From: a virus
Lineage: Duplodnaviria > Heunggongvirae > Uroviricota > Caudoviricetes
Virus record (IMG/VR): IMGVR_UViG_2700989165_000009
Length of the DNA: 22,439 nt
Direction: 5' to 3' (one strand)
Position numbers and translations under genes: made by a program. Under the pieces are notes generated by a model. It was not told the origin of the DNA and did no database searches. It saw only the letters and a program-made list of their open reading frames with translations. Below are positions 1,494-19,713 of this stretch, piece after piece. Within the stretch, counting starts at the first letter, position 1; each line of letters opens with the position of its first letter.

Positions 1494-1685
1494 CGAAGGT
1501 GGAGTTCTTTTCCACGCAGCTATTTAGTACAGTACTGAGTCATATTGTTTATGTATGAGTTAACTTCCGTAATATCAATTAAATAAAATAAGTTGAGGCC
1601 ATTGTAGAAGTGAGCATTATATCCAGGTTATCTGGACCTGTTGAAAAATGCGTATTATTCCAACAATTACCCTAGATTAACAAGT

Positions 1686-2087
1686 CTATTTATTTGGATG
1701 CATAGGCCACTCGGGTTTTACTACATTAACACGCATAAGCAGTACGCGATATTTTTTCCATGCCAGTAACAGTTTCGTTTCATCATCTGTTGCCATACCT
1801 AAATCAACCGCATCCTGAAGCGGCGCTATTACATTCGTTGCCTCTGCTATCAGTGCAGATTTCTTTTCATCATTTATTAAGGCTAATTGTTCTGGTGTTG
1901 GAGAAGGACGGTCAACAATGACAGGGTGACCGTTCTCACCACAGGTAATCATTTTTGTTACACTCTGTGAGTTAATCAGTGTTTTCCACTCTGATTCCGA
2001 GATTTCCACTGCATCATCAGGAATATTGGTGCCGTGAAATTCAGTCGAATAAAATCCGTTTGTCGATGCAGAATAAAAATATGACAT
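1686..2087 (-). CDS. Tail fiber assembly protein (Tfa chaperone)
   Basis: C-terminal ...DDETKLLLAWKKYRVLLMRVNVVKPEWP is the classic Tfa/Mu U-type signature. I place the start at the ATG at 2087 (MSYFYSASTNGFY...), 4 nt after the tail fiber stop, rather than the longer ORF start at 2183, which lies inside the tail fiber gene. Confidence 0.8.
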   Translation of the reverse strand: MSYFYSASTNGFYSTEFHGTNIPDDAVEISESEWKTLINSQSVTKMITCGENGHPVIVDRPSPTPEQLALINDEKKSALIAEATNVIAPLQDAVDLGMATDDETKLLLAWKKYRVLLMRVNVVKPEWPMHPNK

Positions 2088-2091
2088 TTCG

Positions 2092-2883
2092 TTAATATCC
2101 CATTGCAATGTAATACGCATCAGCAGATGAACCATATCCTGAACCGGGCGACACTGTAATATCAAATCCAGTGTTATGGACATTTGTCGCCGATACAGTC
2201 GGCTGCCCTGACGCGCCAGTAACGTTCAATGTAACTGTGACAGCAAGGACTCTTGAGAATGTCATCGGGAACCTCATCCCGTATGTTGAAGATACATTAG
2301 GGGAGCCATTCAACTGACCGCACTGTAAAATTAATCCAGACGGAAATTTTTGCGCAGCAGCCGTTGCGGTATTACTTGACGCGAACAGGCTCATATCAGG
2401 TATCTGATTCGCCCCTGTACCTACATTCCTTTTAGCCGCTTCTCCCAAACCAAGGTATGTGAGAATGTCAGCAATAGTATTTTTCCCAATAATGTCACGG
2501 CCAACAGAAGTTAAATCAGTCTGCGCTGCTGTATCATTTCCAGTGAAATATGGGAGTTTATTTGCACCTGTTGCGAGCCCAGCTAATGCCGACAGCGTGG
2601 CATCAAGCGCCTGGAAATCTTTCCCGAAAGCGGTCCCCATTTTGGATATAAACCCGTTCAGGTCTCCATCATCAAGCACATCCAGCCTGCTTTTGTTGGC
2701 GGTGTACTGCGCCAACGCTGCCGCGATAAAGCTGGCTTGACGAATAGCTTTGTTGACCTGTGCGCTGGATGCTTTACCTGCCGTAAACCCTGAAAGCAGA
2801 GCCGGAAGTGCTTCCCAGTCAGCTTGTGAGGTGACGTTAGCGTTCGGATCAAGCGCGAAAGGTTTAAAGTTGTTTATTGCCAT
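2092..2883 (-). CDS. Tail fiber protein (short; receptor-binding C-terminal region)
   Basis: Position immediately upstream of Tfa. Ala/Thr/Gly/Ser-rich fibrous composition. Start chosen at the ATG at 2883 (MAINNFKPFALDPNANVTSQADW...), which overlaps the upstream stop as TAATG; an alternative ATG at 2901 has a poorer ribosome-binding-site spacing. Confidence 0.7.
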   Translation of the reverse strand: MAINNFKPFALDPNANVTSQADWEALPALLSGFTAGKASSAQVNKAIRQASFIAAALAQYTANKSRLDVLDDGDLNGFISKMGTAFGKDFQALDATLSALAGLATGANKLPYFTGNDTAAQTDLTSVGRDIIGKNTIADILTYLGLGEAAKRNVGTGANQIPDMSLFASSNTATAAAQKFPSGLILQCGQLNGSPNVSSTYGMRFPMTFSRVLAVTVTLNVTGASGQPTVSATNVHNTGFDITVSPGSGYGSSADAYYIAMGY

Positions 2884-3563
2884 TAGAGTATTGTCCCCCA
2901 TGCTCCAACATCGAACCCGCCGATGTATTCGTTATCCATATCAAACCCAAAGAATTTAGAGCCCTCGGATGGTGCTTCTACCGAAGGCGTTTCAACATCA
3001 CCGGCCCATACGCCAGCTGCTTTAACGGTGAGATAGCCCTGTTTGATAGCGGCAATCAGTTCAAGAGACACATCAGAAATATCAGTCTCGGGGAATACCC
3101 AAACCGATATCGTCATGTCCTGGTTGTCGACAATTTGCATCCTCAGGCCTGAGCCTTCAGTCGCAGCGTCAAGGATGGGAGGCAGAGAGTCGTTCCGACC
3201 GTCCCAGTTGTTGATAGCGATTTTCGCTTTCAGAATGATGCGGTACGTCTCATCGCTTAGCGTCGTATAGCCAGAATCAGGATCATATGGCCCTTTCCAG
3301 ATGCCCTGGTCATACCCAAGCCCGTCAGTGTCCCAGCTGAAATAAACTCCGCTAATTGGCTGGCTGACTATGCGACTGCGTCCGATCCACAGACCGAGGA
3401 TGTCGAGCTGTACACCGACAGCAGTATCAATATCGAAGGCTGTTATAAGCCCTGACATAGTGCTGGACACATCAATCAGCGGGCGGGTGCTCAGATCTAT
3501 ATGGTCAAAAAAGAGTGGCTTGGTAGCGTGGTAGTTAGTGATCAGTTCGGTGTATTTGCTCAT
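2883..3563 (-). CDS. Baseplate wedge / tail-fiber-attachment protein (Mu gp48 or P2 gpI-like position)
   Basis: 226-aa ORF between the baseplate J-like gene and the tail fiber gene, start overlapping the upstream stop. Family assignment is by position and from memory only. Confidence 0.5.
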   Translation of the reverse strand: MSKYTELITNYHATKPLFFDHIDLSTRPLIDVSSTMSGLITAFDIDTAVGVQLDILGLWIGRSRIVSQPISGVYFSWDTDGLGYDQGIWKGPYDPDSGYTTLSDETYRIILKAKIAINNWDGRNDSLPPILDAATEGSGLRMQIVDNQDMTISVWVFPETDISDVSLELIAAIKQGYLTVKAAGVWAGDVETPSVEAPSEGSKFFGFDMDNEYIGGFDVGAWGTIL

Positions 3564-4818
3564 GAGGTCACCGTGATACTGATATTCGCGGTGCTACAGG
3601 ACGCAGAAGCATCATAGGCAATATCAATGTTTGATGCCGATACGCTGCCAGACGACTTACCGATCAGCAGGTCGGTAATATCGTAATAGCGGGCATTCCC
3701 GCCGCTCACAACGCCGAGGTTTGCCGGGGAATAAATACGGCTCAGCAGAACGTCGTCGCCAATTGTTAGGCCATTTATATAATCGGCAACAGCCTGTTTA
3801 ATCTGCTCGCCGATTTGAGAGGTATAGCCGGTAAAAACTTTCAGGGTAATGGCTACGAAAATTGGCACATCGGTAGAGCGCGAAAAACTGATGACGTGTG
3901 GATTACCGTAAGTATCCGGCACCGTGACAGAAGTTTTACCGTAAGTTGCGGTTCCCTGCCCTTTACTCCCCCGGATTGTTTGGGCTATCTCGGTAACATC
4001 CCCTCCATCGACGATGGCGGAAATAGAGTGTGGCGGCAGCCCGTTGCTGTCGGTTGCCCCAGTGTCGTTCTCATATAGTTTGTGACGTGTCACGCCAGCA
4101 ACATTAGCGATAGCACCGTCGACACCTTCAAACGGTGTGATCGATGGTAGCGCGACGCTTTGCCCCTGCCGAATGCGCAGCTCTGCGTCGGTTTCGGCTG
4201 GTGAACCGACAGTAGCCGCAACTGNNNNNNNNNNNNNNNNNNNNNNNNNNNNNNNNNNNNNNNNNNNNNNNNNNNNNNNNNNNNNNNNNNNNNNNNNNNN
4301 NNNNNNNNNNNNNNNNTGTTGATAGTGGTAATAGTCCCGGCCAGCGCCGCAACCGAACCGCTATTCGCACATGTGGCCGTCACCAGCACAGTACCATCAA
4401 CGCCGATCGCTACACTTGCGGGAAAATTCCAGATAATGCCGTTTTTATCCCGTGCGGAGCCATTCGTGATAGTCGTGCCTGCCGTACCGGTTAACAGAAG
4501 GTCAGCAGTAGAGTTTGTCGCTACTTTTCGCGTGATCCCGTTAATTTTCACATTGCTGCTAAGCGCTGCGGCCTGCGCTGTCGTCGGTGAAAAAGAGTTG
4601 TAGATCCCGATAGCGGTGTTGTTAGCGTCATGCACGGCAAGAGCCACCAGCGCGACCATCTGCCCGTCTTTGCTGTCTGGTTCGAGGTAGGCATCACTAC
4701 CGTAAATCTGCCTGAAATAGCTGGTCAGTGTATCTAGGATTGTCTGGTAATCAGGCGCACTAATCCCCTGGGCGGTTACCGTTGCCGATAGCCCCAGCGT
4801 GTCGAGGTTCAAAGCCAT
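3560..4818 (-). CDS. Baseplate J-like protein (Mu gp47-like), interrupted by an assembly gap
   Basis: N-terminal part MALNLDTLGLSATVTAQGISAPDYQTILDTLTSYFRQIYG... runs from 4818 into the N-run. Below the gap an open frame (...SPAETDAELRIRQGQ..., resembling the baseplate J EsDeALR.R motif) continues to the stop at 3560. The two parts are out of frame only because of the arbitrary 92-N spacer, so the 3560..4093 ORF is the C-terminal part, not a separate gene. Confidence 0.7.
4225..4316. other. Assembly gap (92 N)
   Basis: Run of n characters in the sequence. Confidence 1.
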
Positions 4819-5172
4819 TTATGCCTCGCTTGTTACAGTCGTCTGGCCGTAGATTGTGTCAATGGAGGAAGTGAAGGTGACGCGACGGCTGGTGCCGTCA
4901 TAATTGGTATCGAAGGAAAGAATCGACAGAACGCCCGGTGTATCCTGTATGCGTTCGCGTATAGCCAGGATGTAGACATCTGATCGCTGCTTCCCAAGCA
5001 CTGACTGAACATACGGCGTGCCTTCCGTCAGATCGAGAAACCACTGACCGCGCCACAGCTCGAAACGGGTTTTTACGGCCTGGGCGACACATTCCGGACT
5101 GTCGATAAGGAAAGTATCGTCACCCTGGCCGAAAGTGTAATCGCCTTCAGTATCTTCGCGACGGTATCGCAT
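4819..5172 (-). CDS. Small baseplate protein (gpW/Mu gp46-like position)
   Basis: 117-aa ORF coupled to the upstream gene by an ATGA overlap at 5172 and followed directly by the J-like gene. Assignment is by synteny. Confidence 0.5.
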   Translation of the reverse strand: MRYRREDTEGDYTFGQGDDTFLIDSPECVAQAVKTRFELWRGQWFLDLTEGTPYVQSVLGKQRSDVYILAIRERIQDTPGVLSILSFDTNYDGTSRRVTFTSSIDTIYGQTTVTSEA

Positions 5173-5912
5173 TATTGCGGCCCTCCGGTAGTTCCCCCGC
5201 CAGTCTGTACTCCGCCATGTTTATGCGTGGCGACACTGATACCAGAAGCTGTTACGTCATTCGTTACCGTCACCGGCCCAAGCATCGTCGCAGTACCGCC
5301 GCTTTCGCCCATTCCCTGAGACAAGTTGCCATTAATCGTTACGTTGCCGTTCAGCGTGATAGTCGGGGATGTGATTGTCGTTCCACCTTCAGCCGTAGCT
5401 GTAAGCTGGCCCGGTGTTTTAATGGTGATGTTATGTCCTGCGGCGACTTCTACAAACGCCGCACCATCATCGGTTCGCAGCTGCGCGGCGCTGGTACTGA
5501 TACCGCTGATTTTCCGTGCTTGCGACTGCGGGCCAACGATGGCGAACGCATCAGATAAGTCATGCTGGCGCGGGTCGACGGTCTCCTGAACGCCGCCGCT
5601 CTGCCACCAAAAATCGATGCAACGGTCAGCAAAAATCAGGAGGCACTCGTCGCCTTCTTTTACCGGAAAGGTCAGCGTGCAACCGCCGCCGCGCGGGAAG
5701 ATGACCGGCACATCCACCAGCGGTTTTAATTCGGTGGATCCATCGCCAACAATACCGCGTAGCGCCACCTCTACTGTGCAGGTAACAGTCTCAGGATCGA
5801 ACGACTGAATGATGCCGGGCATCGCTACGCGCATCTGGGTAGACACCGAATCGGCAATGGCCTGCGCGGTCTGCTGCTCACCGCCGATCTGTGATTGAGT
5901 TGGAATTGGCAT
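5172..5912 (-). CDS. Baseplate central spike protein (gpV/Mu gp45-like)
   Basis: 246 aa with a Gly/Thr-rich beta-helix-like C-terminal half ending ...VATHKHGGVQTGGGTTGGPQ, an HxH apex-like motif. GGGGG ribosome binding site 4 nt upstream of the ATG at 5912. Confidence 0.6.
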   Translation of the reverse strand: MPIPTQSQIGGEQQTAQAIADSVSTQMRVAMPGIIQSFDPETVTCTVEVALRGIVGDGSTELKPLVDVPVIFPRGGGCTLTFPVKEGDECLLIFADRCIDFWWQSGGVQETVDPRQHDLSDAFAIVGPQSQARKISGISTSAAQLRTDDGAAFVEVAAGHNITIKTPGQLTATAEGGTTITSPTITLNGNVTINGNLSQGMGESGGTATMLGPVTVTNDVTASGISVATHKHGGVQTGGGTTGGPQ

Positions 5913-5923
5913 AAAACCCCCAT

Positions 5924-5947
5924 AAAAAAACCAGCCGAAGCTGGTTT
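5924..5947 (-). terminator. Intrinsic terminator-like hairpin, possibly bidirectional, at the left border of the moron island
   Basis: On the minus strand AAACCAGC-ttcg-GCTGGTTT is followed by TTTT and then ATGGGGG, giving a 7-nt U-run; on the plus strand an A-tract precedes the same hairpin. Confidence 0.5.
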
Positions 5948-6134
5948 GGTATCAATTATCTCTTAGTAACTAAGCTACATCAGTGTGAAGTAAGGCTTTT
6001 CCGCTGCAATGGCACACATTCACAAGGTGTATTAGGATATGTTTGCAACAAGTAAGCATTGAAAATCAATTTCAGCCATGAAGCCGCCATAGAGTGGACC
6101 TGCACCATCGCATTATTGACTACAGGAGTAACAA

Positions 6135-6425
6135 ATGGGATTTAGATTTCGTAAAAGAATCCGGATTGCGCCCGGACTCGCGATCAACATTAGTAAAAGC
6201 GGAGTAAGCACTTCAATTGGTGGTAAAGGTTCCACCATTAACATCGGGAAAAAAGGCGTAAAGATGACAAATGGCCTTCCCGGCACGGGGCTGTCGCATA
6301 CCACTAACCTTTACTCTCCCGGGAAATCGACAGAAAAAAAACAACTTACTCATAAGCAAAAAATAATTAGAAACATCCTGTTCGTAATTATTGTGTTTAT
6401 AATAATTAAAGCTCAATATTTTTGA
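6135..6425 (+). CDS. DUF4236-like small membrane protein (moron gene)
   Basis: ATG at 6135 with a strong AGGAG ribosome binding site 5-6 nt upstream. N-terminus MGFRFRKRIRIAPGLAINISKSG...GLPGTGLS matches the DUF4236 signature as I recall it. C-terminal hydrophobic helix IIRNILFVIIVFIIIKAQYF. It is the only non-acyltransferase gene on the plus strand, and its 3' half is AT-rich. Confidence 0.65.
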   Translation: MGFRFRKRIRIAPGLAINISKSGVSTSIGGKGSTINIGKKGVKMTNGLPGTGLSHTTNLYSPGKSTEKKQLTHKQKIIRNILFVIIVFIIIKAQYF

Positions 6426-6430
6426 CGCAT

Positions 6431-6461
6431 GCCCGCCTATCTGGCGGGCTATTTTACTTTT
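6431..6461 (+). terminator. Rho-independent terminator after the DUF4236 gene
   Basis: GCCCGCC-tatct-GGCGGGC perfect 7-bp GC stem followed by TATTTTACTTTT, starting 5 nt after the TGA stop. It overlaps the last codons of the convergent minus-strand gene. Confidence 0.6.
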
Positions 6462-6793
6462 CGGCAGTCGTATGTTGCATACTGACGCGGCGAATCCATG
6501 CTGGCTTGCAGCCACTGTGCGTTGAGAATGGCTTTGCCGTTTCGATTGATGTACTCAAGACCAACCCATCTTCCAGGCTGATCGGTAGCCATACGCCAAT
6601 CCATCTTGATATTGTTATAATCGCCTTTGTTTTTCAGGAAGGTGATTTTTTGCATTTCTGGCTTTGCGCCATTGATTCTGGCTAAGCCATCATCTGCCCA
6701 ATGGATTTTAAAATCACCACATTGCTGATCCGCAAAAGCGGGTGCTGATATAAGCACCGCGAACACGGTAACAGTGCAAAGTAAATGTCTCAC
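6449..6793 (-). CDS. Small secreted (periplasmic) protein of unknown function (moron gene)
   Basis: GTG start at 6793 preceded by a GAGGTGG ribosome binding site. Predicted Sec signal peptide MRHLLCTVTVFAVLISAPAFA with an AxA cleavage site before DQQ. The roughly 93-aa mature protein has Cys near both ends. It begins 12 nt after the baseplate hub gene stop. Confidence 0.6.
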   Translation of the reverse strand: MRHLLCTVTVFAVLISAPAFADQQCGDFKIHWADDGLARINGAKPEMQKITFLKNKGDYNNIKMDWRMATDQPGRWVGLEYINRNGKAILNAQWLQASMDSPRQYATYDCRKVK

Positions 6794-6805
6794 GGCCCCA
6801 CCTCA

Positions 6806-7870
6806 CTAATTCGTCGTCCCTTGCATTGCTTTCGGGCTATAAAGATCACGAGCGCCACGCGCAAAACACATCAAATCCATGTACCACGCCTGACCTCTGG
6901 TGTCGCCAGTATAGTCGATAGCTTTGACGATATAAACGCCATCCGTCGCAATGCTGGCAGCCTGTGACGTCGTGCCGGTCAGCACACGGTTGCCGTTCTC
7001 TTCTGTTTCGGTGATACGCCCGGGCGACTGTGCTATTTCGCTATTGCCGAGCGTGGCGCGGTACACCGAAGCCTGATCGAGCTGGATAAGACCATTAATA
7101 CGGATGTTTGGGTTTATCAGGCACCGCACGTTTACTCCGCCACCCATCGTTTGTTGCGGCATACCGATCAGGCCAGTATTGGCATTCAACACAATGGCTT
7201 CGTGAATATATTTATCCTCCGGCACCATCTGGACCTGACCATCCACCAGTTGCCATGTCGCTTTGCACTGCGCAGCAATATTATCCATCACGTTGCGGCT
7301 GGATGAGTAAATCGCGCGGCCACGAGGAAACACGGTATCAGGAAAATCGCCGGTAATGCCCTGTGTCACGCCGAACGCGTTGAAATCCTGCATCGTCGCC
7401 CGGTGCAGATCCGCAACGGTATATCCAGCGGCAAGCGTGGTGATGGTGGTCGCATAGAGGAACGCTTCGTGATCACCAATGGCCTGAATCAACACCCAGG
7501 AATCCGTAATGTTGTCCTTCCCGGTGACGGTGAAGCGAATATCACCGTCAAAAATCAGGCCGTAGTTCTGACCGTTCACCTGCCCTATCTGGTCTGGTGA
7601 AATCTCCCGGGACACACCAACCTGGCTCGCATCAACATCCGGCGCTATACCGTCATACCCGGCAATGATGCGAATTTTGGCAAACTCCTGCCCAAGTATC
7701 TTGTTCGTGGTATCGGTCGAAAGGTTGTAAATTTTCACGTTCGCCACGCGCGGCCAGCGTGTGTCTGCCCACTCGATCTGGAACGTGACCTTAAAGTCAG
7801 ACAGGGAAACGCCCTGCCCGTTCTGGTCCAACAGTTGCAGCTCAAAATGGCGCATCCAGTTAAGAGACAT
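6806..7870 (-). CDS. Baseplate hub-like protein (Mu gp44 / P2 gpD-like position)
   Basis: 354-aa ORF in the tail operon between the post-tape-measure small genes and the spike gene. ATG at 7870. Assignment is by synteny. Confidence 0.5.
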   Translation of the reverse strand: MSLNWMRHFELQLLDQNGQGVSLSDFKVTFQIEWADTRWPRVANVKIYNLSTDTTNKILGQEFAKIRIIAGYDGIAPDVDASQVGVSREISPDQIGQVNGQNYGLIFDGDIRFTVTGKDNITDSWVLIQAIGDHEAFLYATTITTLAAGYTVADLHRATMQDFNAFGVTQGITGDFPDTVFPRGRAIYSSSRNVMDNIAAQCKATWQLVDGQVQMVPEDKYIHEAIVLNANTGLIGMPQQTMGGGVNVRCLINPNIRINGLIQLDQASVYRATLGNSEIAQSPGRITETEENGNRVLTGTTSQAASIATDGVYIVKAIDYTGDTRGQAWYMDLMCFARGARDLYSPKAMQGTTN

Positions 7871-7872
7871 TT

Positions 7873-8178
7873 CTACTCCTGTACGAAAATGAGGTGGCTG
7901 TATGTGCCGAGGTTGGTTTTGGTGGGCTCGTCTGGTGCGCCCTTATCGGTCGCCACCACCAGCGCGCCATCAATGCCAAGCTGTGGATATTGTCGTAAAA
8001 GGTTTACGCCGGTCAGTAGAGGTACGCCAGAGAGAAGCGCGGCACCGCCGCTATCCATCACGTCCATAATCCAGCCAGCCGCATCACGCCAGATGATCCT
8101 GAGTGTATACGTGGTATTGCCCAGCAAAACTCGGAACTGCTGATTGTCAGGAGAAAGCGGTATTTCGTTAAACTGCAT
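7873..8178 (-). CDS. Small tail/baseplate assembly protein
   Basis: 101-aa ORF, tightly coupled to flanking genes, ATG at 8178. Confidence 0.45.
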   Translation of the reverse strand: MQFNEIPLSPDNQQFRVLLGNTTYTLRIIWRDAAGWIMDVMDSGGAALLSGVPLLTGVNLLRQYPQLGIDGALVVATDKGAPDEPTKTNLGTYSHLIFVQE

Positions 8179-8179
8179 A

Positions 8180-8782
8180 TCATCCCCCGAATGCTGATGT
8201 AACGCTTCCGCCCAGCTGGCTCAGCAAGGATTCGTTTGGCGGTGTAGTGGATTTCATCCCGGAATTCTGCACCGCCGATGTGCTGACGCCATCCTGCATA
8301 TCTGATTTATCTGCAACGCTAACGCTCTGCGTCTGCGACATGATCACTTCACGCAGGGTAAGCGTGCAGTTCAGCACGTTCTCGCTGGTTTTATCCGTTG
8401 TCACCTCGATGGCTCGCACCAGCATATTGCTGTAAACCCGCTTTCCGGTCACTACATCGAACGGCACCCTAGAGGACTGGAGATCCAGTAGTTGCTGATA
8501 GGTCTCTTTCGGGCTAAGTCCGGCGCTGAGGCCGATTGACGATGTATCAATGAAGTCCAGCAACGAACCGCCACCTGCGAAGCCGCATTCCATCGTGACT
8601 TCGCTGGGGCGCTTATACGCATGATCGGCGATGAAACCCGACGCGCTATTCGTTGTTGGCTTCTCCACCGGGTGCTCAGTAATTTCGAGCGCATCAGAAT
8701 GCTTTTCAGAAACAACCACGCTGGGGATTAATATTCCAATTCGCCGGGATTGCTGGCGAAAAATTGCTGATAAAATATCCAT
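8180..8782 (-). CDS. Tail protein downstream of the tape measure gene (distal tail/baseplate component)
   Basis: 200-aa ORF whose ATG at 8782 overlaps the tape measure stop as TAATG. Confidence 0.45.
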   Translation of the reverse strand: MDILSAIFRQQSRRIGILIPSVVVSEKHSDALEITEHPVEKPTTNSASGFIADHAYKRPSEVTMECGFAGGGSLLDFIDTSSIGLSAGLSPKETYQQLLDLQSSRVPFDVVTGKRVYSNMLVRAIEVTTDKTSENVLNCTLTLREVIMSQTQSVSVADKSDMQDGVSTSAVQNSGMKSTTPPNESLLSQLGGSVTSAFGG

Positions 8783-10797
8783 TATCTCGGTCCTGCGGGG
8801 AGTTGCTGGGTTAACTGTGAATTCACGCCCTTTTGACGGTCAACAGTCAAACGGGCAGCCTCGCGCGGATCGAAAACGCCGTGGATGTTAATATTCGTTT
8901 CCTGCTGAATCACCGGGGCGCTGGTGGGCATATTGCTCATTACTTTCGGAATGTAGTTGCGCGTTTCCTGCGGCATTAGCCCCATTCCATAACGCTTAAC
9001 ATTCCCGATCCCCCAGTTATATGATGCCAGTGCTTTGCTAAGGTCTCCGCCGTTCTGCCGCAACAGCTGGCTCAGGTACTTAGCGGCTGCCTGAGCTGAC
9101 TTTTCCGGGTCGAATACATCATTCCCACGCAGGCCCATGTCGCGCGCCGTGCCATCCATAAACTGAAACAGACCTTTAGCGCCAGCGCCTGAAACGGCGA
9201 ACTGATTACCGCCCGATTCCGTTATGGCCACGCTGCGCAATAACCCCTCCGGAAGCCGGTAGAGCTGTTCCAGGTTGGTAAACATCGGCTGCATCCATCC
9301 CAGCAGTTCAGAGCCTGCTTTGGTTGGCTGTGGCCGCTTAACTGACTGGCCGAGCTGCTCAGGCTCATCATCACCGAACCAGCCGCGCACCGTTCGGCCC
9401 ACGCTGCGAGGATCGAATCCCCAGTGCTCTTTAATCCAGTCGGCGGTTCCGTTGGCGCTGTCTGTTACCATCGGCATCGCTGACGGATTTTCGCTGCCCT
9501 GATTAAGCATCTGTTTGCCGATGCTGGCGGCATCAGCCCAGCGGCCATCTTTAATGGCGTTGAGCAGGTCGGCGATCATGTTCAGCATCTTGCCGAACTC
9601 ACCCATTTGCGAAATGAAGTTGCTAAAATCCCACTTTAGGGACCATGACTTGGGGTCAATACCGAGCAACTTAGCCAGCGCTTTTGTCAGGTCCGTAACA
9701 GTCTTTTTCAGGTCACCAATCATTTTGACGGCCTGATCAATTTCAGTCTTCCATTTCCCCCAGTCAATCAGGCTTTTGCCACCTTCTTTCCACGTCTGGT
9801 AATCATCCAAGAGCAGACCAAGTGCAATAATAAGCGTCGTTATCATGCCCAAGGGTGATGACATGAAAGCGGTATTTAGCAGCCGCCATGCAACCAACAG
9901 CCCACTGAACAATGCGATAAGCTGCTGCGTGGCTGGGTTCAGCTTTTTGAACCAGGCGATCACACCCTCAACAGCTTGCCCAGTTCGCCATAACACGCGG
10001 GTAATCGCGTCACCTGCCCAGAGAATTCCTTTGATGATCTTCGTGATGACCGCTTCAATCTTCGGCCAGTTGTCGAGTATCTGCCTGCGGAAGTTATCAA
10101 TACTGCCAGCAAGGCCACCAGCTAGGTTAGAGCCAATCTTGTCTTTCGCCTGTCCAAGCGTCATCGTCAGATTACGCATGGAGGTCATGAAAATATTGGA
10201 CTGTTTAGCCGCTGACTCAGCATTAAAACCAATACGCTTTGCCGTCAACGCGTACTCAGAACTGAGCTGCCCCATCCCTCTGCGCATCGCCATCAGCGTG
10301 TTTTCATCGATGCCGAGCATCTGCGCGTATTGCTTCGCGCGGTAATACGGCATGTTGTTGAGCTTTTGGCCAACGCCAGTAAAGATGGCAGCAGTATCAC
10401 GCATCTTTCCGCTGGCATCGCGGGTCTGGACACCAAGACGGTTCAGGAACCCTTCCGCCCCCGGATTGCTACGCATGAAGCCAGCCAACCCTTCGAGGGA
10501 GGACATAGCCGACTCGGCGCTGGCACCGGTTTGCGATGCGGCGTATCCCAGCGCTTTGATGCCCTGGACACTGGCCCCCGTCCGCTGGGATGCCCAGTAA
10601 ATTTTATCCAGACCGTTCGCGATCTGAGTGGTAAATCCGACAATGCTCAGCGCTGCGCCTTTCACCACCGCGCCGACCTTCAGAACGTTCGCGGTAACGC
10701 CTTTCAGCACGGCTTCAAACTTATTAGCGCCAGCCTGATCGATATCGAATCCCAGCGAAACAAGGAAATCTTTAATCGTATCTGCGTTACCGCTCAT
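8782..10797 (-). CDS. Tail tape measure protein with a C-terminal lytic transglycosylase (SLT) domain
   Basis: 671 aa. Helical Ala/Gly/Lys-rich N-terminal half, an internal hydrophobic segment (LIALFSGLLVAWRLL...LIIALGLLL), and a C-terminal AITESGGNQFAVSGAGAKGLFQFM...YNWGIGNV region that matches the family-1 lytic transglycosylase motifs. ATG at 10797. Confidence 0.85.
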   Translation of the reverse strand: MSGNADTIKDFLVSLGFDIDQAGANKFEAVLKGVTANVLKVGAVVKGAALSIVGFTTQIANGLDKIYWASQRTGASVQGIKALGYAASQTGASAESAMSSLEGLAGFMRSNPGAEGFLNRLGVQTRDASGKMRDTAAIFTGVGQKLNNMPYYRAKQYAQMLGIDENTLMAMRRGMGQLSSEYALTAKRIGFNAESAAKQSNIFMTSMRNLTMTLGQAKDKIGSNLAGGLAGSIDNFRRQILDNWPKIEAVITKIIKGILWAGDAITRVLWRTGQAVEGVIAWFKKLNPATQQLIALFSGLLVAWRLLNTAFMSSPLGMITTLIIALGLLLDDYQTWKEGGKSLIDWGKWKTEIDQAVKMIGDLKKTVTDLTKALAKLLGIDPKSWSLKWDFSNFISQMGEFGKMLNMIADLLNAIKDGRWADAASIGKQMLNQGSENPSAMPMVTDSANGTADWIKEHWGFDPRSVGRTVRGWFGDDEPEQLGQSVKRPQPTKAGSELLGWMQPMFTNLEQLYRLPEGLLRSVAITESGGNQFAVSGAGAKGLFQFMDGTARDMGLRGNDVFDPEKSAQAAAKYLSQLLRQNGGDLSKALASYNWGIGNVKRYGMGLMPQETRNYIPKVMSNMPTSAPVIQQETNINIHGVFDPREAARLTVDRQKGVNSQLTQQLPAGPR

Positions 10798-11032
10798 TGG
10801 CCGCTCTCCATTTATCTACCCGGGCGTCGTTATCCTCGCGCATGTCGAGGTAGTCATTGAGAAGCGCGATGCGGCAAAGATCTACCGCACCGCTGTTAAG
10901 GTCTTTCTGGTCAATATGGAAGGCAAGCGCCGGGCGAAGAATAAAATCTTCACCGCCCGGCAGGCTGTTGAAGGTTATTCCGCTAGCGGGGTGGGCGTCT
11001 CGCTGGTAGGGAGTCCTTGCAAAAAATTTCCC
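10787..11032 (-). other. Programmed -1 ribosomal frameshift region of the tail assembly chaperone (G/GT-like): slippery site plus -1 frame extension
   Basis: Minus-strand slippery run GGGAAATTTTTTG (window 11020-11032; heptamer G GGA AAT, compare lambda G GGA AAG) lies 17 codons before the chaperone stop. The -1 frame is open from there across the whole 177-bp gap between chaperone and tape measure, ending at a TAA at 10787-10789 just inside the tape measure start. Confidence 0.6.
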
Positions 11033-11400
11033 AGCGAGTCGGCGACCACCCGCGCCACCAGTTGCAGCATGGTAAGCAGGTCGATATCGTCAAACGCCAT
11101 TTCGCCATGCTGGCAGACCGGCACCCAGCCTTTCATGTGCTCGCGTGAAACAACGGAAAGACAGGGGAACAGGATAGCGTCCACGTCGCCATCACTCAGA
11201 TCGGACACAGCATTGGCAATCTTTGGCAGGATAGTAGCCATCGCGCCTTCGGTGTCTTTGCTGCTGATCTTCTCCTGAACGCTCCGGAAGTCCGAAACCA
11301 TCCCGGCCAGAACCGGCAACAGCTTGCGGGACACCTTCAGCTGTTCGAAAACGCTGAGCTTTGCGGTGCGATATTTCACGCCTTTAATTTCGAATTCCAT
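10975..11400 (-). CDS. Tail assembly chaperone (zero-frame product)
   Basis: 141-aa ORF between the tail tube and tape measure genes, ATG at 11400, with the frameshift signature described above. Confidence 0.65.
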   Translation of the reverse strand: MEFEIKGVKYRTAKLSVFEQLKVSRKLLPVLAGMVSDFRSVQEKISSKDTEGAMATILPKIANAVSDLSDGDVDAILFPCLSVVSREHMKGWVPVCQHGEMAFDDIDLLTMLQLVARVVADSLGNFLQGLPTSETPTPLAE

Positions 11401-11403
11401 GCG

Positions 11404-11844
11404 TTAAAACTCCCCGAGAAGCTGGTCAATCTTGCCGCAGTCGAATACCCAGGCGACGGTTCCGCCCTCTTTAGCGTTATTGAAATCAGGCTGTTTCTGG
11501 AATGCACACGAACGCGCAGTAGAAATATCACCCGATGCCGTGTTGCGAATGACGATCACGTTATTGCCCCAGGTGGCAGAGGACTGGCTTTGCGCGTTAT
11601 ACGCCAGAGACAGCTTTTTATTCACCGGGGAGGTTTTGAGTAGCGTCACCGTAATGGTGCCTGACTTATCGGCGTGCAGGCTGTGCATCACCTCGCCATC
11701 GGCACCGATAGTCATGGTGTTTTTGTTGCCGCCCATGGTCTGGGTGATACCTTCCTCAGAGTTCGCAGAACCCTGACCAAGATCGATAACGCCGGTCGGC
11801 CCGGTGAGCGACGCGGTTACATCGAGAAAAGAATAAGTTGCCAT
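11404..11844 (-). CDS. Tail tube protein (DUF3277-like)
   Basis: 146 aa, MATYSFLDVTASLTGPTGVIDLGQG...TMTIGADGEVMHSLHADKSGTITVTLLKTSP matches the myovirus tail tube family from memory. AAGGAG ribosome binding site 7 nt upstream of the ATG at 11844. Directly downstream of the sheath gene. Confidence 0.7.
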   Translation of the reverse strand: MATYSFLDVTASLTGPTGVIDLGQGSANSEEGITQTMGGNKNTMTIGADGEVMHSLHADKSGTITVTLLKTSPVNKKLSLAYNAQSQSSATWGNNVIVIRNTASGDISTARSCAFQKQPDFNNAKEGGTVAWVFDCGKIDQLLGEF

Positions 11845-11854
11845 TTATCGCTCC

Positions 11855-13000
11855 TTAGCGAACCACGTTGATCTGCACATCGGCATAATGAACTGCGCCA
11901 GCCAGCTTACAGGCCACCTGGATTAACGGTGCTTTGCGCGCTTCACGGTCGGCCTGCGCCTGTTCGGACAGCGGTTGCGCATACACGTAATAGCCTTTGG
12001 TCAGCGTATCGCCGGAATTCAGCTGTCCGATAGGGCCACCATTCCACACGCCAGCAGCTACCAGACCGTTCGTGACGGACTGATCCATGGACTGTTCAAC
12101 GTTGGAAAGCAGACGGGTCACACCGGCATCAGTCTGCGGAATTTTGGTGGTGCTGGTGTAAAGCAGGTTATAGAGGTTGGTCTGAACGTAGTTCTGCAAC
12201 CAGTCGAGCCCGTGGCGCTCGTCGAAGAAGTCACCGTTCGCCATGACACCCTGTTGCAGGATCGCCGTGTCGTTGGCGTAGTACACGAATACATTGCAGT
12301 TTTTTGCATCAAGTGCCGATGCCTGGCTGACTGTCAGTGTTTCATACCCGACACCCGGCTCCTGCTTAAACTTGAGCGTAATCGCGGTATTACTGCCATT
12401 GAAATTAACCGTGAATGCCCGGCCAAATGCAGATAACGCAGCGTATTTATTACCCGATGAATATTGAATAAAACTGCGTGAATATCCGGCGGTTTTCAGT
12501 TTTGATGCCAAATCATCGCTGGATGCAGTCTGCAGGCATTTCTCATCGCTTGTCGTAATCGCCAGAATACGGCTTACAGAAGAGGATTCGATCGCCGCAG
12601 CCACTTTCAGCCAGTCTGCATCCGGAATATCTTCATCGTCTGCAATCCCCAGCCCATACCATGAAGTATAATCGAGCATGGCATTCACAGCCTGCTCCAG
12701 CGTCTCAGGCGTGGCCTGTTCGCTGTCTCCCTTCGTTTTCACCCAACGACCAACAAAAACCTCCTGAGGTTTCGGTGATTGTGAGAAAAACACCTGCGCA
12801 GCCTTATATTCTGGTGATTCCACGCCAAAATCTTTTCCAATATCTTCCGCGGCAGAATAACGGCGAATGCACTCACTTACCGGAATGATTGTGGACGGGC
12901 CGAGAATGAGTAATGCACCAAAATTTCGCCCTGATGCTGCACGCGGCGACATGATCACATCAACATTAACAACGTTTGATACAGGCAAGCCCTGTGCCAT
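11855..13000 (-). CDS. Tail sheath protein (DUF3383-like)
   Basis: 381 aa, [34 protein letters not shown]... Sheath-tube-chaperone-tape measure gene order. Confidence 0.7.
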
Positions 13001-13003
13001 AGC

Positions 13004-13561
13004 TTAATCTCCGAAAAAGATGACTGGTGCTTCCACCAGCGATTTAATACCGTACTCGCGCACAACCTTCCGGCGCAGACGCACCGTCATATCGTAGCGG
13101 CGGACCCATTGCTGATTAATAAGTTCAGGGAAGAGACCTGTGTAATCGCCAAGAGACAGCCCCAGCGCATTCAGTGCTGCGTTGTTCTGCGGTACAGATA
13201 TACCGTCACGAAACCGGGACGCATACACCATCCCCGCCGGACCATAAAACGAAGCCATACACTCAATCGTTTCATGCCGCCAGAGCTGAGAGCCATCATC
13301 GGTCTGTCTGGTGAATGCCGGACTGTCATCCCCTGCCCATCCGATAACCCCAAACGCACACCAGTTCGTTTCAACCGGTAGCAGTGGCGGCTGCTCTTTC
13401 TGCCAGCGCGGGCGAACCATCCCGGCAGACAGACCGGAAACGTTACGCATCCACTGGCTTAACAGCCTGTCGAGCGCTTCGTCATAATCCGGATCGCCAC
13501 TGGTTGGTATTAACCATCCGCGCTCTGTACTGGTGTTATTGCTCAACCGGAGTTCCCCCAT
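13004..13561 (-). CDS. Tail completion / neck protein (hypothetical structural protein)
   Basis: ORF in the head-tail joining block. The first ATG is at 13561; the track's start at 13564 is a TTG. Confidence 0.45.
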   Translation of the reverse strand: MGELRLSNNTSTERGWLIPTSGDPDYDEALDRLLSQWMRNVSGLSAGMVRPRWQKEQPPLLPVETNWCAFGVIGWAGDDSPAFTRQTDDGSQLWRHETIECMASFYGPAGMVYASRFRDGISVPQNNAALNALGLSLGDYTGLFPELINQQWVRRYDMTVRLRRKVVREYGIKSLVEAPVIFFGD

Positions 13562-13925
13562 CAAACGGCATCAACTCACAATGCGCCTGAACGAATCCGG
13601 CCCCATAAGCTGTATACGGGTCGACGAAGGTCACACGATAATCACGGCCCTGATACGTCACGATATCGGCATCACGGCCAGTCTGTCCCTGCGTCAGTCG
13701 CTCAGTCGTCACAATCAGAATTGCACCGCTGATTACCTGCCCTGCCTGCATACGGCGGTTTTCCAGAGAGCGATCAACAGTTACGACTCCGGCAAACTGC
13801 TTTTTAACTTCACTGTCGCTGCCGATCCCGTCCTCATCCACCGTTTGCACTCGGCGTGTTACCCACAAATTGAAGTCGCAAAAATCGGGGTCAAAAAGCA
13901 CATCTGTTACATCAAGAGTCGGCAT
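13536..13925 (-). CDS. Head-tail joining protein (hypothetical structural protein)
   Basis: 129-aa ORF, ATG at 13925, overlapping its neighbours. Confidence 0.45.
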   Translation of the reverse strand: MPTLDVTDVLFDPDFCDFNLWVTRRVQTVDEDGIGSDSEVKKQFAGVVTVDRSLENRRMQAGQVISGAILIVTTERLTQGQTGRDADIVTYQGRDYRVTFVDPYTAYGAGFVQAHCELMPFDGGTPVEQ

Positions 13926-14466
13926 CTTTATCCCTCACAACATGGGTAATAGCTCTGCGATATTGCCCGGTGTCAATTAATGGTTTCGCCAGATCGGTTC
14001 CGGGAGATTCGCCAGCAACACGCCGAGCAAGTTCCAGTGTTGCCCCCTTGCGCCCCCGACGAGCCCGGGCTTCAACGGTGCTATCAGCAAGCGGTGTAAA
14101 GCCGGTAATGGTCATGTAACGCCTGACGCCATTCGCGGCCAGCGTTCCGGCGCGGTTAAGCGCTCTTTCCGCACCCGCCGCATTTCCATCAAGCGCAGCC
14201 TGCGCCGCTGCTTTGAGCTGCGGCACCGTCTGTTCCTCTACGGATTTAACGCCGGGGATCAGGTGCGGGCGTGGGGGTATGTTTTGCGCTGGTGAGCCGT
14301 ATTCGTTGACGTAACCGATCCCGGCATTACCAAACGGAACATCCTCACGCTCGCTGTCTTCTTCCGGGATGCCCACCAGCACATCCTTTTTGGTTAGCGA
14401 CCGGAGCGCATCCAGAATGGCCTGAGCGTTATCAACCCTCGTTGTTACACCACTTTTGAAACTCAT
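13912..14466 (-). CDS. Head completion / connector protein (hypothetical structural protein)
   Basis: 184-aa ORF, ATG at 14466, ATGA overlap with the upstream gene. Confidence 0.45.
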
Positions 14467-14870
14467 AGCTGGCGACCGCCCGCACCGAACATCGTGATCA
14501 GCTGATAAAATTCAGCGCCATATCGGGTGTTATTCCAGAAGCCTGCGTCAGGGTTTAGCGTCGCGCTGGTGTCATAGCTGACGCTTACCTTGTCAACGGA
14601 CTTGGAGGACTGAACACCATTGGTTGAACCGCCCGGGCCGCCAACCAGCATTGCCCGACTATCTGCCGCCCATAGCGTCATGTAGTGAGCCACGAACAAC
14701 CCGGCAAAGTACGGAAACAAATCTTTGCCGGTGACGTTTTCGCTCAGCAGTTCATCGGCCAGATTCAGACGAAACTGGATTTGCGCTTCGGGATATTTGG
14801 CAGGGTCAGCAAACTGCGGGAAGTCGCGGCGAAAATCACTTACCGCTGGCAGGCTTTGATTCTTTGGCAT
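14463..14870 (-). CDS. Head-tail connector protein (DUF4054-like)
   Basis: 135 aa, [35 protein letters not shown] resembles the DUF4054 N-terminus from memory. ATG at 14870. Confidence 0.5.
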
Positions 14871-15057
14871 TTTTTACCTCGTTACGCGCGTCTGTGGCTT
14901 TGCCAACGGATACTTCCGCGTGCGCACGAGTGAACCAGTGCGTGGCAACGTCTTCCTCCACTGCATGACGGCCTTTAACAAACTCGCGCCGCGAACCGTC
15001 GGGAAGCGTGAGCACAAACGGGGTATGTACGTGTATTACTGCATTATTTTTTGCCAT
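14836..15057 (-). CDS. Small hypothetical protein downstream of the major capsid gene
   Basis: 73-aa ORF, ATG at 15057 with an AAGGATGA ribosome binding site 6 nt upstream. Lys/Glu-rich C-terminus. Confidence 0.4.
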
Positions 15058-15070
15058 CGGGTCATCCTTA

Positions 15071-15092
15071 ATGGCCCCGCCAGGGGGGCCAT
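15071..15092 (-). promoter_or_regulatory. GC-rich stem-loop immediately 3' of the major capsid gene (attenuator or mRNA-stabilising hairpin candidate)
   Basis: 8-bp stem (ATGGCCCC / GGGGCCAT) with a 6-nt loop, 8 nt after the capsid gene stop at 15100-15102. No U-tract follows. Confidence 0.4.
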
Positions 15093-15099
15093 GTGGCTG

Positions 15100-16041
15100 T
15101 TAAATGCCATCAACGTACGAAATGGTTTCTTTGTACACTGGCTCAACCGCACCCAGCTTGCCGTAGTAGGTCGCAATCTGATACAGACCGCGATACTGGA
15201 TAGGAACGCTCTGCAACGGCACCAGCGGATAGCGGACGTATTTTTTATCGTTGGTGTACGCAACCATGCGATCCTTATTCCCCACACCACGGCCTTTCAG
15301 CCATTTAACCGCGCGGATATTCAGCGGAACACCGTTCTGGTGATAGCTGATGGTGTTGGTCTGAAGGTACGTCAACAGGGACTGGTTACCCGCAGATGAA
15401 ACGATGATGCTGGACAACAGAGCAAACTGCTCTGGCGGGATCAGCAAATCACGCGGAACCACAGAGTAACCGGAAGCGGCCCACGCATCAGACAGCACCT
15501 GGTTAATGCTTGCGCGGATTTCGTCCGGTGTTGAGATTGCCCACGTTTTGGCAGCGTTGTTGACAGGCACGCCGTCCAGGGTAACAAGGCCTTTCAGGTT
15601 TAATGCGGAATCGCCAACATACACCTGCTCGTCGTTGTCCATCTGCCATTTGAGCTGCATCCCGTCGTACTTCTGGGTGTCAATCGGGCGACCTACCTGC
15701 TGAGCTGCTGCCAGCTCTACAACGGTCCAGCCCAGTTCCATGCCCCAGAGATTCAGCGGGTTACCGGATTTGCCGATATCCACGTTTACGCCAGCAATAG
15801 CGGTTGAGTCTTTGCCTACCCAGTTTTTGCCATTCGGATTTGCACCAGTACCCGCAGCGGCGAAGCTGGTATTCGTCCAGCTGGAAATGTCATCTGCGAT
15901 AGAGACATCTTCACGCAACTGAATATCGCGGGTCCAGGTGTCCCCCGCCAGTGGCAGGTTCAGAGTCTGGTCGAGTCGCTCCAGCTCTCCGATGAGAAAG
16001 GCACCAGAGCTGTCAACGGTTGCCTGATCAAAAGTAATCAT
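15100..16041 (-). CDS. Major capsid protein
   Basis: 313 aa. Position after the protease/scaffold and small head protein genes. TAAGGAA ribosome binding site before the ATG at 16041. Followed by the stem-loop, as is common for capsid genes. Confidence 0.65.
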   Translation of the reverse strand: MITFDQATVDSSGAFLIGELERLDQTLNLPLAGDTWTRDIQLREDVSIADDISSWTNTSFAAAGTGANPNGKNWVGKDSTAIAGVNVDIGKSGNPLNLWGMELGWTVVELAAAQQVGRPIDTQKYDGMQLKWQMDNDEQVYVGDSALNLKGLVTLDGVPVNNAAKTWAISTPDEIRASINQVLSDAWAASGYSVVPRDLLIPPEQFALLSSIIVSSAGNQSLLTYLQTNTISYHQNGVPLNIRAVKWLKGRGVGNKDRMVAYTNDKKYVRYPLVPLQSVPIQYRGLYQIATYYGKLGAVEPVYKETISYVDGI

Positions 16042-16052
16042 TCGTCTGTTCC

Positions 16053-16556
16053 TTAAATCTTCCAGGAAATTTCTGCATTGCCGTTAGCATCACCGGCACC
16101 TGTGAATTCAGCGTTGGTCAGCACCACATTTTTGCCACTGACTGACGTGGACATGAATCCACCCAGCGGCACTTTGATGGATTCATCAGTGGAGACGACA
16201 ACGTATACCGGGTCGCCTTTTTTGATGGTGCTGGCATCAAAATCAGAACCGAGATTAACGGTCACGTAGCCACGCTTCATGGCGTCGCCCGGGAAGTTCT
16301 TGCCTGTTCCCACCTGGCGAACCATGTCCGGCTGCGAAGTGGTCGGATAAGGGCGCACGTAGATCCCCTTCACCTTGTCTGCGGTATCGCCATCTGCCAG
16401 CGGCACGAAAAAACCGTCAGCATCGTATTTACCAGCCAGCCCATAGGCAGCAAAGGCGTTATCGGATTTAAGGACCACCGGTTCGACGGTTAAGTCCTGC
16501 GGGCGAGAGATAGCCCCGGCAATGCCAACAGGCATCCGGTACAGATATGCAGTCAT
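16053..16556 (-). CDS. Head structural protein (decoration/cement or scaffold-like)
   Basis: 167-aa ORF between the protease/scaffold gene and the capsid gene, ATG at 16556. Confidence 0.5.
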   Translation of the reverse strand: MTAYLYRMPVGIAGAISRPQDLTVEPVVLKSDNAFAAYGLAGKYDADGFFVPLADGDTADKVKGIYVRPYPTTSQPDMVRQVGTGKNFPGDAMKRGYVTVNLGSDFDASTIKKGDPVYVVVSTDESIKVPLGGFMSTSVSGKNVVLTNAEFTGAGDANGNAEISWKI

Positions 16557-16560
16557 TGGA

Positions 16561-17781: not shown

Positions 17782-17795
17782 GGTTTACCTGCGAT

Positions 17796-18569
17796 TCAGG
17801 CGAGATAAGAATGAGGGTTGGGAAAAACGATTTCTTTATAACAGCGACAATTCGGGAGCTCGCCAGCGTGACCGGTCATGCCATCAAGCGTTGGAGGTTT
17901 GCCCCATTCGACAAACTTACCTTCCATCTCCCGATGAGAATGCCGGACGTCGCCATCTTCGGCTGTACGCCAGATATAACCATTCGAGCCGATTGACAGC
18001 GCACGCGCCTGATCGAGCGCGCCGGTTGCACGTCCAAGCTCGGTACGGGCGATAAGGTTCGCTCGTGAGCGTGACACGTCACCGGACGCTGCTATCTCTT
18101 TCGCGAATGGTTCAGCGCGGCCACCAGCCACAACGGCCTCGATGGCCTTGTTCTGAATGTCATACACCCGATCGGCGGCCTCAAGAGGCAGTGACTTGAT
18201 ATACTTAATTTGCTCGGCGACGATGGATTTCATCACCTGGCCTACCGGGGCGCGGTCGACCATGTTGCGCAGCTCTGCGCTGATGTTCCGGCTGTGCTGA
18301 CGCCACTGCTTTTCATTCTGGCGTGCAATGTCGGCGGTAAAGTTCTCAGCAACCTTCGTCGCCCAGGGGGTGATGATTTCGCTGTAGCGCTCCAGCGCAT
18401 CCATTATTTCGGTAACGCTATCATTTGAACCATCGTAGCGCCCATTTACGATATCCCCGACCGCCCGCGCTATCTGCCGTAGGCTCGTTCGATATCGGAT
18501 CTCCGCCTGGCGGCTCTGGCGGTTTGTCGCCAAGTTCGCCGATGCCTGGCGGCGCTTCGTCTTCGGCAT
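17796..18569 (-). CDS. Head morphogenesis protein (Mu gpF / SPP1 gp7 family)
   Basis: 257 aa, ATG at 18569, directly downstream of the portal gene as in Mu. The ORF overlaps the portal 3' end by 149 nt in another frame. Confidence 0.7.
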   Translation of the reverse strand: MPKTKRRQASANLATNRQSRQAEIRYRTSLRQIARAVGDIVNGRYDGSNDSVTEIMDALERYSEIITPWATKVAENFTADIARQNEKQWRQHSRNISAELRNMVDRAPVGQVMKSIVAEQIKYIKSLPLEAADRVYDIQNKAIEAVVAGGRAEPFAKEIAASGDVSRSRANLIARTELGRATGALDQARALSIGSNGYIWRTAEDGDVRHSHREMEGKFVEWGKPPTLDGMTGHAGELPNCRCYKEIVFPNPHSYLA

Positions 18570-19674: not shown

Positions 19675-19713
19675 ATCATCCGGGATAGCATCGACCGCTT
19701 CGCCGATAATCTA

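Follow-up and report, generated by a model that had tools for sequence, protein, structure and literature searches.

Introduction

Several described prophage genes resemble, in one respect or another, the subject of this study, a small DUF4236 gene carried as open reading frame (ORF) 6135–6425 (+ strand) of a tailed-phage sequence (Duplodnaviria; Heunggongvirae; Uroviricota; Caudoviricetes), IMG/VR record IMGVR_UViG_2700989165_000009. The whole stretch of 22,439 nucleotides was analysed and is called the window. The first of these genes encodes HK97 gp15, a small inner-membrane moron protein from a tail operon, next to the tape measure gene, that blocks genome entry (Cumby et al. 2012, reviewed in PMC3594210). 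The second, taiEcA of phi80, is reversed within the Q-dependent late operon, expressed in the lysogen and reduced on Q induction (PMC11364771), and noncontiguous operons have been described in Staphylococcus aureus prophages (PMC11087260). Lambda-type morons are low in guanine-plus-cytosine (GC) content, terminator-flanked, located in the tail region and active on the envelope of the lysogen (PMC3594210, together with established knowledge).

The DUF4236 gene has points in common with all of these. As with HK97 gp15, its product is predicted to be a small single-pass inner-membrane protein, encoded by an add-on cassette in the tail operon of a temperate enterobacterial phage, by tape-measure or tail-tip genes, and production by the repressed prophage would be expected of both proteins. 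The HK97 protein is YebO-like, not DUF4236, and no sequence relationship is detected with Pfam; gp15 is the closest functional analogy, free of homology, and it is by this analogy that exclusion may be ascribed to the DUF4236 product. HK97 gene 15 is reportedly co-directional with the tail operon, unlike the reversed DUF4236 gene, and gp15 is said to be anchored at its N-terminus, whereas the DUF4236 product would be anchored at its C-terminus and carry a 60-residue cytoplasmic beta domain.

With phi80 taiEcA/atiEcA and S. aureus tha/ith, the locus shares an opposite-strand accessory gene in a long operon, switchable by an overlapping transcript, and like taiEcA the gene interrupts a late operon. 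The proteins differ: Tai, of 26 kDa, is soluble and inhibits tail assembly, Tha is a HEPN RNase, and both are unrelated to DUF4236. Moreover, no partner counter-defence gene was identified at the DUF4236 locus, where the transcript overlap is deduced from the layout. The genes lom, bor and cor are likewise low-GC, terminator-flanked and located in or beside temperate coliphage tail genes, but they encode outer-membrane proteins or lipoproteins with signal peptides, whereas the DUF4236 product has none and is predicted to face the cytoplasm.

An Insulated Cassette Nested in the Late Operon

We consider the DUF4236 gene to be moron cargo, expressed in the lysogen and possibly serving superinfection exclusion, and would put the probability of this reading, taken as a whole, at roughly 45%. 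The window is an Escherichia coli prophage, 99.8% identical to the TOK-001 locus adjoining yciI/tonB, and the host phage is a temperate E. coli myovirus. Matches to a query covering 5900–6800 were present in 28 of 5,426 complete E. coli genomes, and a DUF4236 gene is annotated under the match in 19 of those 28 (hits H2–H20). All credible genes between 1686 and 22117 are tightly spaced on the - strand, with the exception of ORF 6135–6425, and the RefSeq annotation of TOK-001 concurs. The initial annotation was thus correct in calling this the sole reverse-oriented gene of the structural module. The late block of about 20 kb is bounded by the small terminase gene (21512–22117) and a tail-fibre assembly gene (1686–2183), and its only large gap, of 536 nucleotides, is filled by the cassette.

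The cassette is a low-GC segment of 0.5 kb (5928–6449) between the spike and the hub-side genes (table 1). GC content over 5900–6800 is 0.41–0.47, against 0.53–0.58 in the flanks on both sides. Intrinsic terminators stand at both borders and are the only clean intergenic terminators in a scan of 1500–21499. The one downstream of the gene had been noted earlier and proved robust: the hairpin at 6431–6449 (GCCCGCC-TATCT-GGCGGGC, seven G-C pairs, then the T-rich TATTTTACTTTTC) has an energy of -16.7 kcal/mol (z = -5.1), and none of 200 shuffled sequences folded as well. Read on the - strand, this hairpin is without a T-run. The left-border terminator (-11.3 kcal/mol, z = -3.4) is 100% identical in locus L008 and replaced by different hairpins in L001, L003, L009, L011, L015 and L025, so that every related cassette examined has its own distinct - strand hairpin at the equivalent site. 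Given terminators at both borders, transcripts begun inside the cassette should be stopped at both ends.

Comparison with related phages supports an exchangeable unit. Mosaic boundaries coincide with the terminators; the cassette is 98–100% identical to those of L007 and L032 (ORF 98%) and the adjacent 114-residue gene 66%. Homology with Citrobacter phage Omnitron (L001) and E. coli ET791 (L003) breaks near 5931–5936 and 6452–6463. Omnitron, the one phage-collection record matching the region (92% identity over 82% of positions 5000–8000), has the spike and hub-side genes in common with the window and an unrelated 128-residue secreted protein encoded on the - strand between them, and ET791 has a 54-residue - strand gene instead of DUF4236. 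The site is a hot spot whose cargo varies, and the cassette is a horizontally mobile addition to it. Of the four sequence hallmarks in the Juhala/Hendrix definition of a moron (as given in PMC3594210), three are found here, namely extra DNA relative to close relatives (replaced in Omnitron and ET791 between conserved flanks), base composition unlike the surroundings (the GC dip) and an own terminator (the 6431–6449 hairpin), and we hold the moron label with high confidence.

ET791 also has at the same site an unannotated reversed ORF of 116 residues (L003 2597–2947, + strand) with a central hydrophobic segment, its own + strand terminator and a weak match to phrog_12509. Though unrelated to DUF4236, it too encodes a small membrane protein in reverse orientation at the hot spot. 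PHROG searches of the alternative cargo genes returned no functional annotation.

The locus is laid out as a noncontiguous operon, with an opposite-strand gene nested in a co-directional operon. Because the short distance from terminator to start codon leaves the spike gene no room for a promoter, late transcription must presumably cross the cassette in the antisense direction, and because a clean terminator precedes the spike gene, late transcription would have to be terminator-resistant or leaky there. After induction, such terminator-resistant transcription across the gene would turn it down, following the logic of noncontiguous operons.

The same layout bears on a possible lytic role, in which the protein would serve the phage itself, for example by aiding the assembly of baseplate or tail at the membrane, the ejection of DNA or the timing of lysis. 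We find this quite improbable. It would account for the persistence of the gene between hub or tape-measure and spike genes across several tail types, and for its co-directional placement with the tail genes of some phages, but the gene is reversed and terminator-insulated here, so that late transcription cannot express it. It is also absent from Omnitron, which has the same tail genes, gives way to unrelated cargo in ET791, and has a GC content foreign to the module.

Table 1. Positions of the DUF4236 cassette, its signals and the adjoining late genes in the window
Feature	Position	Strand	Evidence or remarks
DUF4236 gene, 96 residues, ATG start	6135..6425	+	Pfam, PHROG, ratio of nonsynonymous to synonymous divergence (dN/dS), AlphaFold, RefSeq
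Shine-Dalgarno sequence AGGAG	6124..6128	+	6 nucleotides 5' of ATG; kept in L008, L009, L025
Block B, variable	6053..6123	+	Replaced with 39 gap columns in L008, L039, L040; holds TCAATT 6066–6071
Block A, conserved non-coding	5948..6052	+	8 differences per 105 nucleotides vs L008, L040, while ORF dS is 0.47
Left border, intrinsic terminator	5921..5947 (hairpin 5947..5928, then T7)	-	15 nucleotides upstream of spike start codon
Right border, intrinsic terminator	6431..6459	+	Overlaps stop codon of convergent 114-residue gene
Baseplate central spike, gpV-like, Apex motif	5172..5912	-	Pfam, 141 bits, spike N-terminal domain and Apex; late gene directly downstream of cassette
114-residue signal-peptide protein, convergent neighbour	6449..6793	-	phrog_3443, function not assigned
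Baseplate hub, E217 gp41-like	6806..7870	-	PHROG 196 'baseplate hub', E = 3.4e-82; upstream of cassette in late operon

Translation and Selection

The 96-residue product of ORF 6135–6425 is MGFRFRKRIRIAPGLAINISKSGVSTSIGGKGSTINIGKKGVKMTNGLPGTGLSHTTNLYSPGKSTEKKQLTHKQKIIRNILFVIIVFIIIKAQYF, which corresponds to RefSeq entry WP_000506880.1, 'DUF4236 domain-containing protein'. The strong, well-spaced AGGAG ribosome binding site reported in the initial annotation is present, and the surrounding CTACAGGAG is retained in the divergent alleles L008, L009 and L025. Against L008 and L040 the ORF has 23.5 synonymous and 4.5 nonsynonymous differences (dS 0.47, dN 0.02), and against L039 it has 20 and 4, giving a dN/dS of 0.04–0.05 for the divergent alleles. 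Seventeen closer alleles differ at one to six sites each, every one synonymous, and the L038 allele has six synonymous differences and one nonsynonymous. The protein is identical between loci whose flanking genes are 5–8% apart. ORF 6135–6425 is a real gene under strong purifying selection, and its strong ribosome binding site, conservation and selection give it the look of a translated gene.

These values leave next to no credence for the ORF being a decaying or nonfunctional hitch-hiker. Truncated and frameshifted alleles do exist (P0090, P0007, P0114, P0027, P0028, P0033 and P0041), and the failure to find a promoter would fit decay as well. Set against this are the low dN/dS, the identical protein across loci with divergent flanks, the conserved ribosome binding site, and a domain that is conserved across phyla. 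Among the defective alleles, P0090, P0007 and P0114 are truncated or frameshifted, and those of Klebsiella (P0027, P0028, P0033 and P0041) are frameshifted and without the membrane helix, one of them occurring on 15 contigs. P0114 is a chimera in which DUF4236 residues 1–39 are joined to the final 27 residues of the convergent 114-residue protein, a structure that implies either inversion or misassembly.

Upstream Region and Expression Signals

Since everything upstream on the + strand is antisense to the late genes, ORF 6135–6425 needs its own transcription signals. Promoters were scored with an approximate, self-made sigma-70 matrix, using as background the best match in each of 380 equal-sized windows. 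A consensus scan found no + strand site with at least 9 of 12 matches upstream of the ORF. The best + strand matrix site upstream, TTGGAA-17-TAAAAA at 5900–5928, scores 6.7, with background best matches averaging 6.4 and reaching 6.7 or more in 45% of the 380 windows. The promoter proposed earlier, TTGCAA (6043–6048)-17-TCAATT (6066–6071), is present with a score of 6.3. This is at the background median, and its -10 element lies within the segment that is replaced in L008, L039 and L040; we reject the pair as promoter evidence on account of the chance-level score and the unconserved -10 element. A strong + strand promoter-like sequence, TTGATA-17-GATAAT, overlaps the spike start codon in L009 (4670–4698) and L025 (4892–4920). 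In the Klebsiella and E. coli 104-residue alleles it scores 12, against a background 90th percentile of 9.4, and the homologous site in the window, at 5900–5928, is degenerate.

The segment between the left-border terminator and the gene falls into two blocks (table 1). Block A has few differences from L008 and L040 despite the synonymous divergence of the ORF, which indicates that it is constrained and makes it the better place to seek a promoter; it is likely the seat of the promoter or regulatory signals. Block B is presumably the 5' leader, and its 3' part (about 6080–6134) is, by eye, about 75% identical to the leader in L011, a lambda-like cassette from Leclercia. A structured leader or riboswitch at 6075–6140 was rejected (fold z = +0.9). 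We suggest that the gene may be transcribed in the lysogen from its own weak or noncanonical promoter, probably in block A. Independent expression, as argued in the initial annotation, is plausible.

A different use of the cassette would be as an abortive-infection (Abi) or toxin-like effector, an oligomerising membrane protein that depolarises the membrane and whose antidote, in a type I-like manner, would be either the late transcript running antisense or a - strand RNA that terminates at 5928. The protein is small and very basic with a hydrophobic tail, the layout exposes the whole gene to antisense late transcription, ParE and HicB are neighbours in some genomes, and a - strand terminator at the cassette border is accompanied by a weak isrK-like match at 5925–6007 (- strand), falling in conserved block A. 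We nevertheless regard such an effector as unlikely. The isrK match reaches 23.4 bits against an Rfam gathering score of 50 and comes mainly from the terminator hairpin, as do the Trp-leader and rsmX matches, leaving a - strand small RNA ending at the 5928 terminator unsupported. Block A has no significant RNA structure on either strand (fold z -0.4 and -1.0), and no - strand promoter above background was found for the candidate RNA. PADLOC gave no match, and type I toxins generally fall below 60 residues and have no folded domain of that length.

A Predicted Tail-Anchored Membrane Protein

The protein matches Pfam DUF4236 (PF14020) with 73.6 bits (cut-off 27; E = 1.8e-20) over residues 3–55, covering positions 1–54 of the 55 in the profile, which places the initial description of it as DUF4236-like on firm ground. 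DUF4236 is the sole family found with Pfam, PADLOC and NCBIfam gave no match, and the nine PHROG families that match the product have no assigned function. By the same Pfam, PADLOC and NCBIfam searches it belongs to none of the known exclusion or defence families (YebO/gp15, Imm, SieB, PADLOC systems). Residues M1, P13, G14, N18, K21, G29, G32, P49, G50 and G52 are invariant among 53 aligned sequences, and the product keeps the family motifs MGFRF, PG, N-x2-K-SG, G-x2-G and PGTG. In nearly all of the best 150 library matches the domain begins at residue 1.

AlphaFold, run with the 53-sequence alignment, predicts a six-stranded beta-meander at residues 7–60, a linker and a helix at residues 73–95, with a predicted local distance difference test (pLDDT) score of 81. 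Block-mean pLDDT over the helix is 84–96 in the single-sequence model and 86–96 in the alignment model. The predicted regions of the product are a basic beta-meander constituting the DUF4236 domain (residues 1–60), a K-rich linker (61–76) and a C-terminal transmembrane helix (77–96). The hydrophobic segment runs from I77 to F96, the best hydrophobic 17-mer being residues 77–93 with three residues after it. Homologues of 80–120 residues are built in the same way, with a hydrophobic 17-mer in 162 of 172 (94%), followed in 161 of the 162 by eight residues or fewer. The hydrophobic C-terminus and modelled helix are consistent with the tail-anchored membrane protein described in the initial annotation, as a prediction.

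The product has 17 K and R against one D or E, its N-terminus (MGFRFRKRIRI) is basic and without a hydrophobic core, and no signal peptide is predicted. Given the basic charge and the lack of a signal peptide, the domain is expected in the cytoplasm, held by the C-terminal helix. The models thus point to a tail-anchored inner-membrane protein that would insert N-in with its DUF4236 sheet on the cytoplasmic face. Variants in Vibrio and Photobacterium with an SH3b domain after the membrane helix (DUF4236-TM-SH3b) fit the N-in orientation. Alternation of hydrophobic (I, L, V, M) with polar or basic residues along the strands makes the sheet amphipathic. Its packing surface is probably a partner, a further copy of the protein or the membrane.

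The DUF4236 Family and a Possible Role in Exclusion

Relatives of the gene recur in tail modules of myovirus and siphovirus prophages that are unrelated to one another, and many of them, though not all, are reversed. The gene is reversed between spike and hub genes of the same myovirus tail in Klebsiella, Hafnia and other E. coli. It is also reversed in a lambda-like tail of Leclercia, between gpM and the tape measure and with part of the 5' leader in common, and it is co-directional in a lambda-like tail of Pseudomonas syringae, between gpK and gpI. At least 531 IMG/VR contigs encode DUF4236 relatives. A survey of gene neighbourhoods at 24 representative loci, which had been suggested as a way to find recurring partners, did find them; the commonest neighbour families are the spike, E217-type hub, baseplate J, baseplate wedge and tape measure. 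Eight of the 24 loci have both neighbours on the other strand, 10 have one and six have neither. When tail-anchored forms were surveyed in 29 genomes of diverse taxonomy, the leading neighbour families were integrases, helix-turn-helix regulators, tape measures, ParE and HicB, which is the profile of mobile-element cargo.

That the gene is sited time and again by those for tape measure, hub and spike hints at a protein that interferes with membrane penetration or DNA entry. The service rendered to the lysogen at the inner membrane may then be superinfection exclusion, in which the protein would block membrane penetration or DNA entry by related phages. HK97 gp15 acts in this way from an equivalent position in its own tail operon. 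Our confidence in this particular role, which is drawn by analogy with HK97 gp15, is low.

Several results weigh against the moron-borne exclusion factor proposed here. No promoter above chance was found upstream of ORF 6135–6425 with either the consensus scan or the approximate matrix. The product has no homology to known exclusion or defence proteins in Pfam or PADLOC, and it would expose only three to five residues to the periplasm, which is unusual for tail blockers. Reverse orientation is not universal, six of the 24 representatives being co-directional with their neighbours, and the association with tail genes may reflect only permissive insertion sites. Finally, DUF4236 proteins that are soluble, or whose genes lie away from prophages, are numerous.

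This last point reflects the breadth of the family, which comprises about 13,000 clusters at 50% identity (13,037 representative clusters), is taxonomically broad and conserved across phyla, and ranges from tail-anchored members of about 90 residues to soluble proteins of about 590. With so many soluble and non-prophage members, the domain appears to be a general module that says little about the function of this protein. No function or solved structure is assigned to DUF4236, and in the literature searched a single paper mentions the family, and only in passing.

Such breadth is what would be expected if the gene served lysogenic conversion apart from phage defence, its sheet modulating a host envelope, cell division or stress function. 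Fusions to SH3b and FtsK-gamma domains exist, many members lie outside prophages, and the window holds another gene of conversion type, the acyltransferase gene at 394–1395. We judge this explanation somewhat unlikely, because the small tail-anchored forms concentrate on mobile elements and tail modules and no host pathway partner recurs beside them. Returning to exclusion, a generalisation may be considered with more doubt than the reading of the single locus: tail-anchored DUF4236 proteins could constitute a large unrecognised prophage family of lysogen-made inner-membrane factors directed, at the cytoplasmic face, against the machinery for membrane penetration or DNA entry (tape measure, hub, spike) of incoming related phages, travelling as terminator-insulated cassettes between the tail modules of myoviruses and siphoviruses unrelated to one another and switched off by antisense late transcription on induction.

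The gene was already annotated and morons are a well-known kind of element; the new points are the insulated structure of the cassette and the recurrence of the family beside membrane-piercing tail genes. Small tail-anchored DUF4236 members behave as mobile insulated morons, and inner-membrane exclusion is the first concrete hypothesis for the family. With this locus, E. coli provides a further case of a gene running backwards within a late operon, a layout through which, as lately shown, prophage defence genes are coupled to the life cycle. If the protein had no phage-related phenotype, it would be one more prophage accessory gene.

Some relatives have distinctive neighbours or fusions. In Leclercia L011–L014, a 43-residue lipoprotein-like ORF (6338–6469, +; MKKVLALLLVVAFGLMTTNSMAC...) lies downstream of the reversed DUF4236 gene in the same orientation, which suggests a small reversed operon. 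The DUF4236-TM-SH3b proteins of Vibrio and Photobacterium (L022–L024; P0011, P0017–P0021, P0057) are 167 residues long and encoded in variable chromosomal islands, their gene always being followed by one for a protein of 179–191 residues with no assigned function. One DUF4236 homologue is fused to an FtsK-gamma domain.

Neighbouring Genes

The convergent 114-residue gene (6449–6793) is part of the phage backbone, yet low in GC. It is present in the Omnitron, Klebsiella and Hafnia relatives, is swapped for an unrelated gene for a 158-residue secreted protein in L016 and L017, and may itself be an older moron. An obligate partnership with DUF4236 is ruled out, since Omnitron and ET791 have the 114-residue gene without DUF4236, and Hafnia L016 and L017 keep DUF4236 with the 114-residue gene replaced. 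A promoter-like site at 6936–6908 precedes the 114-residue gene.

Elsewhere in the window, a masked run of 92 N at 4225–4316 splits the baseplate J gene into apparent ORFs 3560–4093 and 4090–4818. The second + strand gene of the window encodes an Acyl_transf_3 acyltransferase (394–1395) just past the tail-fibre end of the structural module, possibly with a role in O-antigen modification, and adjoins an IS1 InsA fragment (1–276, - strand). At this end of the prophage, TOK-001 has an invertase and an invertible tail-fibre segment instead.

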